Source: a phage
DNA length: 64,000 nucleotides
Sequence record: PZ445521.1
Strand: one strand, 5' to 3'
Of the stretch, positions 51,230 to 56,798 are shown piece after piece (position 1 is the stretch's first letter; every line of letters begins with the position of its first letter). Under the pieces are notes generated by a model. That model worked only from the letters and a program-made list of their open reading frames with translations. It was not told where the DNA came from and searched no databases. The position numbers were made by a program, and so were the translations under genes.

Positions 51230-51832
51230 TTATAGATTAAATCCTTCAAAATCAAGAGTATAGATAGTATATGTTGAATACTTTTTATACTCATATCTAT
51301 CTGCAATTCTAAATACACTTCCAGCTGGTATCATTACTTCTTGTTCATCTGAAACTAATTCCATATTACGATAACGATGGCTATCCGGAAACTTAAAGTT
51401 TGGATTGTATTCTTTACAGCGTAGAGCTTTTATAGCATACTCCTGGAAATTGAATACCATAGGAGCTTTGAATTCAAAAATAACTTGTGTGTTATACTCT
51501 AAACCAGAAGCAAAATGTAGAGCTATATTTTTATCATATGAAGCTGATACTACTTTATCAAATGTAATAATATCAATTCCTTGATTTAACACCTGCTTAG
51601 TCTCAGCTGGAACACCTCTCCAAAGAGGTTTATCGTTTGGAACCAAACGAGATTTGATTATTTCATTTAACCAAGAATGATCGTCTGGTTTATTAGTAAT
51701 ACAATGAATTAAAAGTTCAATTTCAGATAAATTAAACCCTTCAGAAAGTAATTCTTCACGAATAGAAGCACGCACCGATGCATCCATTGATTTTATTTTA
51801 AAATCTTTTAGTTGCATTACTGAGTATTTCAT
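51230..51832 (-). CDS. modA: ADP-ribosyltransferase ModA
   Basis: 200-aa ORF with R...S-x-S/T...EQE ART motif (EQEVMIPAG). Confidence 0.7.
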   Translation of the reverse strand: MKYSVMQLKDFKIKSMDASVRASIREELLSEGFNLSEIELLIHCITNKPDDHSWLNEIIKSRLVPNDKPLWRGVPAETKQVLNQGIDIITFDKVVSASYDKNIALHFASGLEYNTQVIFEFKAPMVFNFQEYAIKALRCKEYNPNFKFPDSHRYRNMELVSDEQEVMIPAGSVFRIADRYEYKKYSTYTIYTLDFEGFNL

Positions 51833-52452
51833 TCAACTACCTCAATATCATAAACTTTAAATGTTCCAAATGAATCGTGTAATTTTTCTTTTGAAATAGA
51901 AGTTATTCTATACTTTCCAATTGGAATCATCCATTCTTGTTCACGCACAATCATCATTAAGTTATCAGTACGCTCTGAATCTAGCCCATCAGTATCTTCA
52001 TACGTGTACTTAAACTCAGTATTAGGAGAAGAAAGTATAATATCGCTGATATGGTCAGAATAATTAAAAGCTTTATTAGTTTTTAAGCGAAGTATTATTT
52101 TAGTAAAATATTCAGCGTAAGAAAAAGAACATGCTGTGAGCAAACTAGTAGTAAATGAATCTACTCTATTCGTTGAAAACACTTCTCCAACTTGTAAATC
52201 TTTAATAAGTTCTTCTGTTGATTTTGATATACCACGATATAACTGATAAGGTGATTTAGTTAAATGCTTTTTAATGATTTTATTCAACTGCCGATGAAGA
52301 GCTTCATTCTTTTTGGCTTCCATACATTGCCAAAGAACTGACTGCTCAAAGTCAGTAAATTTTTCACAGACCTTTTTATACATATCATATTGAAAATCGA
52401 CGCTTTCAGCTTTTATAGATAACTGTTCAACATCTGCAAGATTAATAATCAT
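51829..52452 (-). CDS. modB: ADP-ribosyltransferase ModB
   Basis: 207-aa ORF with EQE motif (REQEWMIPIG); ATGA overlap with modA. Confidence 0.7.
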   Translation of the reverse strand: MIINLADVEQLSIKAESVDFQYDMYKKVCEKFTDFEQSVLWQCMEAKKNEALHRQLNKIIKKHLTKSPYQLYRGISKSTEELIKDLQVGEVFSTNRVDSFTTSLLTACSFSYAEYFTKIILRLKTNKAFNYSDHISDIILSSPNTEFKYTYEDTDGLDSERTDNLMMIVREQEWMIPIGKYRITSISKEKLHDSFGTFKVYDIEVVE

Positions 52453-52519
52453 GATAGCCTCCGTATACTTCAGAAGCTATCATATCATCGTTAGAAAGGA
52501 AAGTAAACAACTTTTTGAA

Positions 52520-52702
52520 TTATTTTGCCCAGGGAGCCCAGGGCGGAGGGTCAAGATGGTATGAAGCTAGTTCTTCTAGAAGAGCATCTGGGGCTTCAAT
52601 TCCATAATTCTGTAATACTATACGGTACTCTTTCTTATAATCACTGGAATCATTCTGGTTATTCGTAGAATGATTATCTTCTAACATCTCAAATAAATCC
52701 AT
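52520..52702 (-). CDS. hypothetical small acidic protein
   Basis: ORF track. Confidence 0.45.
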   Translation of the reverse strand: MDLFEMLEDNHSTNNQNDSSDYKKEYRIVLQNYGIEAPDALLEELASYHLDPPPWAPWAK

Positions 52703-52710
52703 ATTAATTC

Positions 52711-53181
52711 CTAGCGATAAAAACCAAATTGACGATTAGCTTCAATAATCTTTCTTTCTTCTTCGGACATTCTCCAGCGTAGTCCAACGTCAAAATGAGC
52801 CCAGACCATCTTAACAAATGCATTTATATCTTTAATATCTTCAATAATGAATGTTTTACTTTTAAAAGGCTGACTCGCTAATTTAACTTTATCATCTTCA
52901 AACAGGTCAAAAAGACCATATTCATGAGCTCTTTTATAGCCTTTAATAGTTAAAGCTTCAGAAGAAGAAAATGGTGAATCTGTATTCTGCAAAATATCTT
53001 CAGTATGCTTTATAATTAGAATAATATTTTCTGGATATTTTCTTTCTTTTATATCTTTAATTAAAATATCCGGATTTTCTGCTAAAGGAATAATTAATGA
53101 GCATTTTTTATCAAGTGTATTTACTGATTTACCTTCTTTAGACATAAATTCTATTGAATAATGTTTTGCTACTTCAATCAT
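52711..53181 (-). CDS. hypothetical protein
   Basis: ORF track, 156 aa. Confidence 0.5.
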
Positions 53182-53334
53182 GGGATTTCCTTTTGCCTAC
53201 TAATGGACCATCGGGAATTTTGTTTTCCTGGATATATTTCTCATTTTCTTCCATCATTTTACTGCCAATTTTAAGAAGCAAATCCAGTGCTTCATTTGCT
53301 TTAGCTTTAGCCTCTTCCAGCGTCATATCTTTGT

Positions 53335-53538
53335 TCACGATTTATCCCCATAGATGTCTCTCATCAATTTAAGCGCTGAGCGTTCTAATTTCTTTTCTTT
53401 CTCAGCACTAATCATTGATTTCATCCATTCTTCCGATTCGTTCTGCATTTCTTTATTTGCTTGTTCAACCCAACCATCATCAATGTACATTGAGTTTGGT
53501 CTATTGAACCATTCAAGAATCTTCTTGAGAGCTTTCAT
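53335..53538 (-). CDS. hypothetical small protein
   Basis: ORF track. Confidence 0.45.
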
Positions 53539-54010
53539 TTATTTTACCTAAAACAATAGTAGGAGCATTGTCAAATTTATGAATTTTTAGCAAATTTGGA
53601 TTTAAATTATTCCATAAAGAGGTAATAAAATATGATAGCGCACTTTCGTCCGTAATTATAAATTTATTTCCTTTATCTATTTTCCAATCATATATTGAAT
53701 CATATGAATAGAAGGATAACGGTTTATTATTATAATATGCTTCAGCAACATCAATATAGTTAGATTTAGTAAATGCTTGAATTGCCATAAATGGAGAATT
53801 TTGTACAGTTTCAATAATTCCGATCTTTTTAAGTTTTATTTCAACATCTTCTGGAATTGGCATTGAAATAAAATCTTCTACTAGATACATGTTATTGTCA
53901 TATCTTTTATCAATCATTACTGCTACGGTAATTGGAACATCCTTGACAAACGCCATACTAATGCTATTGATAGACATTTCAAACAAAATTGCTTCCATAA
54001 TTTTCCTCAA
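53513..54010 (-). CDS. hypothetical protein
   Basis: ORF track, 165 aa. Confidence 0.5.
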
Positions 54011-54348
54011 TCACAAGATGTAGATGAACAACTAGAATCACAAGAACTTCCACATGAATCGCCCGTCCATACATAAACAGGAACATTAGTATCATATGAA
54101 TCAGAACTAGACTGTGTTTTCTGTGTGTTAGATGATGTAGTAGGTACTGACCAGCGCCAAGGATTTTTATAATATTCTTGGGCTTCTTCATAAGTCATAG
54201 TAACTGCTTCTACTGTTCCATCTCCCATATAAACATATTCAACTACAGTTAAAGGAAGGTAGTCATTTGAAATAGGAACTACACCTTCCCCAGGAGTCGT
54301 AGAGAAAAAATCCGTAAAGAAACTTTTAAACCAGTTAAAGATAAACAT
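54007..54348 (-). CDS. hypothetical protein with Cys/Ser-rich C-terminus
   Basis: C-terminal [19 protein letters not shown]; hydrophobic N-terminus. Confidence 0.5.
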
Positions 54349-54554
54349 TACAAAAAGCCTCTTTTGAATTCGACTTGCTTTTCACCATAATCATATCGAA
54401 TCTCTGCATTAAATTCGACAGAACCATCTGCGTACATCATAAATGAATGCACAACAACTTCTGTAGACCATGGTTGCAATTCATATTTCTTCATTACATG
54501 TCGTGAAATGATAATATCTAAATCTTCATTCGGTTTAATCCAACGATTTAACAT
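54348..54554 (-). CDS. hypothetical small protein
   Basis: ORF track; early promoter GTTTAC..TGGTATAAT upstream at about 54575..54612. Confidence 0.5.
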   Translation of the reverse strand: MLNRWIKPNEDLDIIISRHVMKKYELQPWSTEVVVHSFMMYADGSVEFNAEIRYDYGEKQVEFKRGFL

Positions 54555-54620
54555 AGTGCTCTCCTCTATAAGATAATTCTATTATACCATACTCATTTTG
54601 GAAAGTAAACCGTTTAAATG

Positions 54621-54647
54621 AAAAAAAAAGGACTCCCGAAGGAGTCC
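54621..54647 (-). terminator. C(UUCG)G stem-loop terminator downstream of soc
   Basis: Same 18-nt hairpin ggactcccgaaggagtcc as at 317..334, preceded by A9. Confidence 0.6.
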
Positions 54648-54653
54648 TTGAAT

Positions 54654-54899
54654 TTATTCACCAGTTACTTTCCACAAATCTTCATTTGCAGCAATCCATT
54701 CAGTACGTTGATTTTCTTCATATACTGTAGAATATGCTGCTTTTTCTGAAGGGAATGTCTGGTAATGAGCTCCAGAAATTTTGTGAACGTCAGAATAAAG
54801 AGGGAAAGCTACGGAAATTTCCTTTCCTTCAATTTTCTTATTTCCATCTAATTTCTGCTCAAATGTTTTGATATTAACATAACCGCGAGTACTAGCCAT
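54654..54899 (-). CDS. soc: Soc small outer capsid protein
   Basis: 80/81-aa ORF MASTRGYVNIKTFEQKLDGNKKIEGKEISVAFPLYSDVHKISGAHYQTF.. matches T4 Soc as recalled. Confidence 0.85.
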   Translation of the reverse strand: MASTRGYVNIKTFEQKLDGNKKIEGKEISVAFPLYSDVHKISGAHYQTFPSEKAAYSTVYEENQRTEWIAANEDLWKVTGE

Positions 54900-54929
54900 G
54901 TAATTCTCCTTTTATTTAAATTACATGAT

Positions 54930-54937
54930 TATTTATA
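54930..54937 (-). promoter_or_regulatory. late promoter TATAAATA upstream of soc
   Basis: Plus-strand tatttata about 30 nt upstream of soc ATG. Confidence 0.6.
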
Positions 54938-54982
54938 ATAAATTCTCGCGGCTTTTAAGTCGTCGTTTAAATAAACGAGCTA

Positions 54983-55501
54983 TTAATAGCCTCGATCTTG
55001 ACGTGCGAAATTTTCGGCATTTTTCAGATAATAAAGTTTAAAGATTTCCTCAGCTGACATTCCAAGAGCAATAAATTTATTCATAAAAAAGTGAAATTGG
55101 TCAATCAGTTCAAATTTAATTTCAAGCTGATCTTCAGGAGATAAGTCTTGAATTTTCTTGGATTGCATTTCAGAATAACGTTTCTTCCAAGGTTTCCATA
55201 CGGCAGAAGCTTCTTTTTCACCATTACTCATACCACCAAGAGAAGTATATAGCTCGCGAGTTTCATCTGCGATATAATCGTCTTGGTTTCGCAGCCAAGC
55301 AAGAACTTCTCCTGCGGTTTCAAGTGAATCAGGATGACGATTTGTTTCTGGCTTATCATTAGCCAAACGAATCTGTAAAGACCGCTGCATATCAAGCATA
55401 ACCTGCAATGGGTCTTTTTCATCACCGAGAATATCCCAGTATTCATTTTGAGCTTTATCAACACCTTCGATCAAATGAGCGCATTCATTAAAGTGAGCCA
55501 T
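54983..55501 (-). CDS. 56: dCTP/dUTP pyrophosphatase (gp56)
   Basis: 172 codons from MAHFNECAHLIEGVDKAQNEYWD.. with AGGAAA RBS; track ORF has 31-codon upstream extension. Confidence 0.8.
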   Translation of the reverse strand: MAHFNECAHLIEGVDKAQNEYWDILGDEKDPLQVMLDMQRSLQIRLANDKPETNRHPDSLETAGEVLAWLRNQDDYIADETRELYTSLGGMSNGEKEASAVWKPWKKRYSEMQSKKIQDLSPEDQLEIKFELIDQFHFFMNKFIALGMSAEEIFKLYYLKNAENFARQDRGY

Positions 55502-55572
55502 TATTTTTCCTTTCAATTCATGGGTTAGTAGATTAATTATACAATAAATATATAAAGCAATAAGGAGGACAT

Positions 55573-55773
55573 ATGGTACAAAAATTAATGGCACTTGTTG
55601 ATGCCATAAAAGGTAATAAGAAACGTATAGCTTTTACTATTTCTGCTATGGTAGGAATTTTACTCTGGAACTTTATTCTATCACCTGTTGCGATTGCACA
55701 TGGTATTAATATTCCAGTAGTTACTCTTGATACATTCGTAGATTTAGCATTTGCTTTAGTTGGGTTAATTTAA
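55573..55773 (+). CDS. small two-TM membrane protein on the opposite strand to flanking early genes
   Basis: Strong RBS AAGGAGG 5 nt before ATG; MVQKLMALVDAIKGNKKRIAFTISAMVGILLWNFILSPVAIAHGINIPVVTLDTFVDLAFALVGLI; 4-nt convergent overlap with gene 61. Confidence 0.5.
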   Translation: MVQKLMALVDAIKGNKKRIAFTISAMVGILLWNFILSPVAIAHGINIPVVTLDTFVDLAFALVGLI

Positions 55774-56798
55774 ATCTTGGCATATTTAGATAGCCGCATT
55801 TTAGCCATCAACCCCTGGGCAATATTATTTTTCATATATTCCATAATTTGTTCAGTGGTTGCACCTTCCTTTCTAATCATATCATTAACATCTTTTGATT
55901 TCCAGGGAGATTTATCCCAAAACATAACCCTTTCTCCTGCATCAACTAATTTAGTCATTCGCTTAATAGTGTCAGGATGACGAGGTTCATTATCTAAAAC
56001 CCACACACGTCTATCTTTAAATGGAACAACTTCTAGGTCTAATTGACCACCCGTAATAGCTATACCATTTTCAATAAAAAGTGAATCTATAGGTCCTTCT
56101 AGAACATATACATCACCATCTTTAACTCGTTCTACTCCATAGATTTTTGTTGCCTCAGGATAAGCTTTGATGGTGATATATTTTTGAGGAGCATCTTTCT
56201 TTAATGCACGTCCTTGAAAAGACTCAGCTTTTCCATTAGCATTATAAATTGGAATAACAAGACGAGGCTCAGAAATTTCCTTTTTATATGTTCCCGGTGC
56301 TATACTATTAACTAATTTAGGCCATTCGGTTGTAAACCAAAGATATTTCCATTTATCCTTTGGAATACAACGAGCTTTTACGTATTTTATAATTGGATGG
56401 TCTTCCGCCAGTTTATCTAATCTAACACATGACGGAAGAGATTTAATTATTTTCTTCTCAGGTTGTTTAGGAAGTTCTTTAGGTTTTTCTACTGGACGAC
56501 TTTTACCTTTTTCTTTTCTTATTTCAAAGATATACTCACGATATAAATCAGGTTCAAACTCCTTTAAATATATTCCGATTGGTGCATGATAGTTACAGTT
56601 ATAACAATGAATATTTCCTTCATTATTATCGCCATAATACCATCCACGAGCTTTATTCTGGTCGGTTTTTGAATCTCCACAAACAGGGCATCTAAACCGT
56701 AATTTAAAAGTTGAACTATTATTTACTTGTGTGAATTTAGGTAAATGGGCTAATGCACGATACGCAAACTCATTATCAATCCAAGGTATTGATGACAT
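55770..56798 (-). CDS. 61: gp61 DNA primase
   Basis: 342-aa ORF with N-terminal zinc ribbon (CPVCGDS...CYNCNYH) and Toprim domain. Confidence 0.9.
   Translation of the reverse strand: MSSIPWIDNEFAYRALAHLPKFTQVNNSSTFKLRFRCPVCGDSKTDQNKARGWYYGDNNEGNIHCYNCNYHAPIGIYLKEFEPDLYREYIFEIRKEKGKSRPVEKPKELPKQPEKKIIKSLPSCVRLDKLAEDHPIIKYVKARCIPKDKWKYLWFTTEWPKLVNSIAPGTYKKEISEPRLVIPIYNANGKAESFQGRALKKDAPQKYITIKAYPEATKIYGVERVKDGDVYVLEGPIDSLFIENGIAITGGQLDLEVVPFKDRRVWVLDNEPRHPDTIKRMTKLVDAGERVMFWDKSPWKSKDVNDMIRKEGATTEQIMEYMKNNIAQGLMAKMRLSKYAKI

Follow-up and report, generated by a model that had tools for sequence, protein, structure and literature searches.

The 64,000-nt stretch of phage DNA in record PZ445521.1 (the whole of it is called the window below) contains, between modB and soc, an interval at 52520-54554 in which seven open reading frames (ORFs) lie on the minus strand, each being a collinear orthologue of a gene of phage T4 with 93-100% amino acid (aa) identity. 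We put at about 90% the probability that this interval is a T4-type early, non-essential 'host-takeover' gene block of seven small genes between soc and modB. Within the block, most of the attention is given here to mrh.1, the product of which ends in a conserved cysteine- and serine-rich tail.

In the direction of transcription, the block starts with mrh.2 (54348-54554), encoding a protein of 68 aa that is identical to T4 Mrh.2 at 67 of 68 positions (phrog_1873, E = 1e-36). It is followed by mrh.1 (54007-54348; 113 aa, 109/113 identical to T4 Mrh.1), a member of the domain-of-unknown-function family DUF7206, and by mrh (53513-53998), the 'modulator of rpoH', encoding 161 aa when read from its ATG (157/161 identical to T4 Mrh, 97.5%). 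The next genes are srh (53335-53538; 67 aa, 65/67 identical to T4 Srh; phrog_2441, E = 2e-40) and modA.4 (53174-53338; 54 aa, 52/54 identical to T4 ModA.4; phrog_2681, E = 2e-37). The last two are modA.3 (52711-53181; 156 aa, 148/156 identical to T4 ModA.3), a paralogue of mrh, and modA.2 (52520-52702), whose 60-aa product is the same as T4 ModA.2 at all 60 positions (phrog_1647, E = 1e-31). A PHROG family is matched by all seven products, with E values between 1e-31 and 1e-58.

An earlier, sequence-only reading of this DNA had listed six uncharacterised ORFs of 60, 156, 67, 165, 113 and 68 aa, and had implied that they were new. All six are indeed present on the minus strand at the positions it gave, as taken from a mechanical ORF list, but the count is seven, modA.4 with its GTG start (54 aa) having been overlooked. 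The same reading held that mrh could not be recognised, while the 165-aa ORF is Mrh itself: this length is the longest reading of the frame, from a TTG at 54010, and the annotations of T4 and of Shigella phage JK38 start at the ATG four codons later. The comparison with the modB-soc interval of T4 shows every ORF to be clearly orthologous to an annotated T4 gene, which removes the implied novelty and is the very finding that would speak against the earlier reading. The term 'uncharacterised' holds for five of the seven genes (modA.2, modA.3, modA.4, mrh.1 and mrh.2), which are still 'hypothetical proteins' in the T4 record.

The seven ORFs are more than chance. In the pooled comparison of the seven genes with T4, the proportions of synonymous and nonsynonymous differences are pS = 0.089 and pN = 0.015, respectively (pN/pS = 0.16), and purifying selection thus acts on the annotated frames taken together. 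A purine-rich stretch resembling a Shine-Dalgarno sequence precedes most of the starts and is weak at srh. The genes are tightly packed: the mrh.2 stop and the mrh.1 start have one base in common (TAATG), mrh and srh overlap by 26 nt, the GTG start of modA.4 (ATG in T4) runs into the stop of srh as GTGA, 8 nt are common to modA.4 and modA.3, and the other intergenic gaps are of 8 nt. Quite likely, a single polycistronic early mRNA carries all seven genes, the translation of neighbours being coupled.

The signals around the block fit an early transcription unit. An intrinsic terminator lies after soc (54628-54649, minus strand), with a G+C-rich stem of 9 bp, a UUCG-type loop and a run of nine T (-18.9 kcal/mol, z = -4.6), and separates soc from the early unit downstream. 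Twenty bases beyond it, at 54609-54581 on the minus strand, is a candidate early promoter of the T4 type (sigma-70) that would serve mrh.2 and what follows it, made of GTTTACTTTCC, a 17-nt spacer and TGGTATAAT. This consensus match is the best of the region, with 10 of 12 positions and the TG of an extended -10 element. A second putative early promoter precedes modB (52507-52479, minus strand; GTTTACTTTCC, 17 nt, TATGAT), again as a consensus match. In T4, the early promoters Pe12.8 and Pe15.0 have been listed, and the characterised genes downstream of this early-promoter group include modA, modB, srh and mrh (PMC6024815). The two sites described here presumably correspond to these promoters, Pe15.0 being the mrh.2 site.

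The boundary between the block and modB (52450-52507) carries a hairpin of 18-19 bp at about 52450-52490 on the minus strand (-22.3 kcal/mol, z = -4.0). Its 5′ arm holds the -10 element of the proximal early promoter, while its 3′ arm holds the Shine-Dalgarno sequence and AUG of modB. The hairpin is kept in T4, in the Dhakaviruses VR5 and NC-G, in phage MY742 and in Kanagawavirus PEi20, with four pairs changed on both sides. A scan of 51500-56000 with Rfam models gave nothing near the gathering score. The conservation of a hairpin over the modB start suggests that modB translation is masked when the message reads through from the mrh.2 promoter. A transcript made from the proximal promoter would instead begin within the 5′ arm, leaving the modB site open. 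Such masking of the modB ribosome-binding site during read-through appears somewhat more plausible than not.

A third type of signal, the MotA-dependent middle promoter, was searched for with an approximate pattern made of a MotA box and a -10 element (TGCTT-N13-15-TANNNT). This pattern matches 30 times in the window, against 14.8 +/- 3.7 by chance in shuffled sequences. The sole minus-strand match inside the interval, a consensus match only, is at 53256-53280 (TGCTT, 15 nt, TAAAAT), within modA.4 and upstream of modA.3.

Experimental data on the block concern mrh and srh. Both influence the late transcription of T4 at 42 °C and in some mutants of rpoH (sigma-32) (PMC6070864). In an rpoH mutant, Mrh is reported to inhibit the expression of T4 late genes when the temperature is high (Frazier and Mosig 1990, as cited in PMC6070864; PMC8076793). 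Purified Mrh elutes as a megadalton complex, a very large homo-oligomer, for which a 3.3 Å cryo-electron microscopy structure was obtained and not shown (PMC8076793). A sequence search of the PDB found no structure of Mrh, and no later paper on the cryo-electron microscopy structure was found. In the T4 record, Srh is termed a 'postulated decoy of host sigma 32', and a table of decoys is available (PMC3594737).

Mrh and ModA.3 both match the family PF24070 (T4_MRH) from end to end, Mrh with 142.6 bits (E = 1e-41) and ModA.3 with 129.1 bits (E = 1.5e-37), for a gathering threshold of 24.4. The two proteins have 23% identity over 104 aa and, being members of the same family, are considered paralogues. 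Within this family, genetics exist for Mrh only and not for ModA.3.

Mrh.1 matches PF23836 (DUF7206) with 101 bits (gathering threshold 25.6) over model positions 1-107 of 107, and also phrog_2031. Single-sequence searches with Mrh.1 returned 7 (indexed) and 10 (exhaustive) matches, the exhaustive HMMER search adding three distant full-length relatives, and a profile was required to collect the family of 153 proteins. In GenBank phage records, tblastn with the Mrh.1 of the window finds at least 80% identity in 502 phage records, which are T4-like (Tequatrovirus-type) by organism name, and tblastn with two of the distant relatives finds about 775 phage records. The hosts among these approximately 775 records include Escherichia, Shigella, Yersinia, Klebsiella, Salmonella, Citrobacter, Enterobacter, Serratia and Edwardsiella.

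The layout of Mrh.1 consists of an N-terminal amphipathic helix, a beta-hairpin with a helix, a disordered linker rich in Ser and Thr, and a tail of Cys, Ser and Asp. In an alignment of 70 sequences, the conserved parts are the N-terminal MIxWLKNLFK helix, PGEGxVPI, a motif containing YxYMGDG, and the extreme C-terminus. The N-terminal helix, the PGEGxVPI element and the SCD C-terminus are thus common to the protein described here and to the other members of PF23836. The AlphaFold2 model built from these 70 sequences predicts a helix at 3-15, strands at 34-40 and 46-52 and a helix at 53-61, with a predicted local distance difference test (pLDDT) score below 50 at 70-109. The first helix spans 10-13 residues, with a hydrophobic moment (muH) of 0.5-0.64 and a mean hydrophobicity of 0.13-0.5, and is followed by PGEG. 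The N-terminus, noted earlier as hydrophobic, is rich in Phe. A signal peptide of the n-h-c type or a transmembrane anchor, for which some 18 or more uncharged residues in a row would be expected, was considered and rejected, the segment being too short and too polar or amphipathic, as judged from the sequence and not by a dedicated predictor.

The tail codons G96-D113 occupy 54010-54063 on the minus strand. From S98 to its end, the tail does not differ from that of T4, and is hence not peculiar to the source phage. In the 70 aligned members, C112 is invariant, and at least 90% of them keep S102, C103, D104, S105, S111 and D113; C99 and C107 are found in Tequatrovirus-type proteins only. The terminal motif C[DG]S…[SG]C[DN], which nearly always ends in SCD, closes 97 of the 99 full-length members from several genera of Tevenvirinae, among which 32 distinct 14-aa tails occur. 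The equivalents of C103 and C112 are 4-9 residues apart across the family, mostly 6 or 8. The genera differ in the remainder of the region, Tequatrovirus Mrh.1 having four tail Cys and a short linker, while in most other genera the linker is longer and the number of Cys is exactly two. The tail described as unusual from the sequence of a single phage is accordingly a genuine, conserved feature.

A variant of Tequatrovirus Mrh.1 with 164 aa is encoded by Escherichia phage 235Ecol030PP (P0003), in which a linker insertion of 51 aa leaves the tail in frame. Part of this insertion (NVGAGALPLNSKKLKE) is similar to what Dhakavirus- and Karamvirus-type members carry in their longer linker, and the short linker of T4 therefore looks like a deletion derivative.

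As a tentative proposal, Mrh.1 could be a cytoplasmic adaptor, the amphipathic helix and beta-hairpin domain of which would dock on a host partner or a membrane surface. The tail, flexible, acidic and Ser-rich, would expose a pair of thiols at its C-terminus (SCDS…SCD-COOH). This pair may act as a redox, sulfur-transfer/persulfide or shared metal site, or as a decoy or trap for a host enzyme that handles such tails. We consider an adaptor with a chemically functional terminal thiol pair possible, with the odds against it. In the same vein, the pair (…SCDS-x(3-5)-SCD-COOH) might form an early host-takeover module that engages a thiol-dependent, sulfur-transfer or metal-dependent host enzyme, or that assembles a shared metal or Fe-S site, possibly with Mrh.2; this is speculative, and we would give it about one chance in four. 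The recurrence of the mrh.2/mrh.1 overlap, which is also of one base in Dhakavirus and of 4 nt with the ORF at the corresponding position in MY742, suggests co-translation of the two proteins, and perhaps a complex.

The large subunit of class Ia ribonucleotide reductase offers a parallel, in that its flexible C-terminal tail carries a Cys pair that shuttles reducing equivalents. Mrh.1 resembles it by a disordered C-terminus and a conserved Cys pair a few residues apart, and this analogy is used as a lead only. Unlike ribonucleotide reductase, Mrh.1 has no catalytic domain, and neither sequence similarity nor membership is claimed.

In a rival to the thiol-pair adaptor, the four Cys of the tail would bind a metal by themselves, as in Zn, Fe-S or metallothionein sites. 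The T4-type tail, with its C-x3-C-x3-C-x4-C spacing and its Asp residues, would suit such a site, and the Cys positions are conserved within Tequatrovirus. However, only C103 and C112 are conserved family-wide, their spacing varies by several residues and most members have two Cys. Furthermore, the tail is predicted to be disordered, it contains no CxxC or CxC units, and no metal-binding family was matched in Pfam or NCBIfam. A self-contained site is hence unlikely, and the suggestion of the sequence-only reading that the tail binds metal stays unconfirmed. A metal might instead be bound by a Cys2Asp2 site or by one that two chains share.

A functionless tail, for example a slippage-prone filler rich in Ser, would account for the predicted disorder and for the variable, indel-prone and Ser/Thr-rich linker just upstream. 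This is improbable, as conservation in Mrh.1, the YxYMGDG motif aside, is highest in the last residues, the same ending is shared by nearly all members across several genera, and the tail is maintained in frame across the insertion of phage 235Ecol030PP. In addition, the Ser codons of the tail are a mixture of TCA, TCT and AGT, which shows that it is not a DNA microsatellite.

Still less credence is given to the tail being the core of a ribosomally synthesised and post-translationally modified peptide (RiPP) of the lanthipeptide- or azole-like kind, for which the N-terminal domain would serve as leader. Ser, Thr and Cys abound at the C-terminus, as they would in such a peptide, and residues 95-109 match the FxLD lanthipeptide-precursor model TIGR04363 (E = 0.011, 15.8 bits). 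This match is compositional and far under the 30-bit cut-off, the other NCBIfam matches being sub-threshold noise. None of the seven proteins encoded in the interval matched a dehydratase, cyclase or radical-SAM family, mrh.1 is surrounded in T4 and other loci by genes for small hypothetical proteins, ADP-ribosyltransferases, Soc and dCTPase (with mrh.2, mrh, srh, soc and modB among them), and no cleavage motif is evident in the protein. The idea that the tail is a substrate for modification thus lacks confirmation, its sole hint being this sub-threshold match with no modifying enzyme nearby.

The relatives of the block leave little room for the view that its ORFs are novel. Megablast of 52400-54700 against GenBank phages returned 541 records, and in 498 of them 80% or more of the query is covered. 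JK38 (MK962755.1), a Tequatrovirus, comes first with 100% identity, extending over 7.3 kb around the interval, and T4 matches at 97.3% over 2301 nt, the full length. On these matches, the source phage is classed as a Tequatrovirus. In a blastn comparison with 7.3 kb of T4, the window aligns as one collinear segment of about 5 kb, from dda through soc, at 96.7%. The T4 interval (AF158101.6 13198-15232, first sequenced as GenBank M30001) agrees with that of the window in its seven genes and in their order, strand, lengths and overlaps, and differs by point substitutions only, apart from the start codon of modA.4. M30001 already names mrh.1 and mrh.2.

That the ORFs are without T4 counterparts and replace mrh and gene 69 as a lineage-specific insertion is almost certainly wrong, since, although segF (the old gene 69) and dam are truly missing from the source phage, each ORF has 93-100% identity to its positional counterpart in T4, the block is common to the 498 phage records and the region is collinear with T4 at the identity given above. 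The earlier statement that gene 69 could not be recognised was correct, neither segF nor dam having a tblastx match anywhere in the 64-kb window. As everything in the interval is an annotated T4 gene, its content is, by sequence, already known and belongs to the textbook genome of T4.

The order soc, mrh.2, mrh.1, (mrh), srh, modA.4, modA.3, modA.2, modB recurs in several phages, with some genes missing. In Dhakavirus NC-G and VR5, the order is kept and modA.3 is present, with no mrh between mrh.1 and srh. The order is partly kept in Enterobacter phage MY742 and Kanagawavirus PEi20, and in Winklervirus LC53 the mrh.1 homologue lies immediately after soc. All of the loci looked at contain a homologue of mrh.1.

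Several observations weigh against the assignment of the block to host takeover and against the role proposed for Mrh.1. The host-takeover role of Mrh.1, Mrh.2, ModA.2, ModA.3 and ModA.4 is drawn from position and early-promoter context only, and the searchable literature contains no experiments on these five proteins and no phage paper naming modA.2, modA.3, modA.4, mrh.1 or mrh.2. The early- and middle-promoter calls are themselves consensus matches, and promoter-like sites are not enriched overall, with 16 found against 17.8 expected in shuffled sequence. The similarity between Srh and RpoH is short and weak (BLASTP, 32% identity over 38 aa, residues 244-279 of E. coli K-12 RpoH, pairwise E = 7e-4, 22 bits). 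These residues lie in the C-terminal region 4 of the sigma factor, and the basis of the 'sigma-32 decoy' label seems reproducible, but weakly so. Mrh has no similarity to RpoH.

The AlphaFold2 model of Mrh has a mean pLDDT of 45.5, from an alignment of 41 sequences that are all at least 75% identical apart from ModA.3, and that of Mrh.1 has a mean of 57, with only the hairpin and helix reaching 70-80. Both models are of low confidence and not good enough for a fold comparison, and no credible match to Mrh, Mrh.1 or ModA.3 came from sequence searches of the PDB. Among the PADLOC defence and anti-defence models, there was no credible match to the block, the single one (Mrh.2 to BrxC, 12 bits) being judged spurious.

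Beyond soc, the window departs from T4, the flanks of which carry segF and dam. At 54900-55800, segF is absent between soc and gene 56, and dam is absent between gene 56 and the primase gene. Gene 56 (dCTPase, 54983-55501) is only 79% identical to T4 in DNA (78.8%), compared with 96.7% in the flanking dda-soc block. This drop, together with the absence of segF and dam, marks a mosaic boundary at the soc/56 junction. Another match to the MotA pattern (55536-55559, minus strand) is found some 35 nt upstream of where gene 56 starts, and the T4 record annotates the oriA primer RNA as a gene 56 transcript. Between gene 56 and the primase gene, a hydrophobic ORF of 66 aa is found on the opposite strand (55573-55773, plus strand); it is annotated in JK38, and small ORFs are annotated at the equivalent position and orientation in NC-G, VR5 and MY742. 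T4 is 94.7% identical in DNA to the window at 55562-55709, yet it has no annotated feature there in the part of the record examined, up to 17874.

The comparison also exposes problems of annotation in public records. JK38 has the same interval sequence, but modA.4 is absent from its feature table. In many GenBank records, modA.2, modA.3 and modA.4 are labelled 'molybdenum ABC transporter periplasmic molybdenum-binding protein ModA', and this widespread molybdate-binding label looks like a collision with the name of the bacterial modA gene.

No description of the terminal motif of Mrh.1 as a family-wide feature was found, and its definition here adds incrementally to what is on record for a domain of unknown function and does not amount to a new type of system. 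What had been seen as an oddity of one protein is a near-invariant motif of a whole Tevenvirinae family, and C103 and C112 give a concrete handle on Mrh.1. If the proposal made for it is true, the thiol-tail module would be a kind of phage host-takeover device that has not yet been described.

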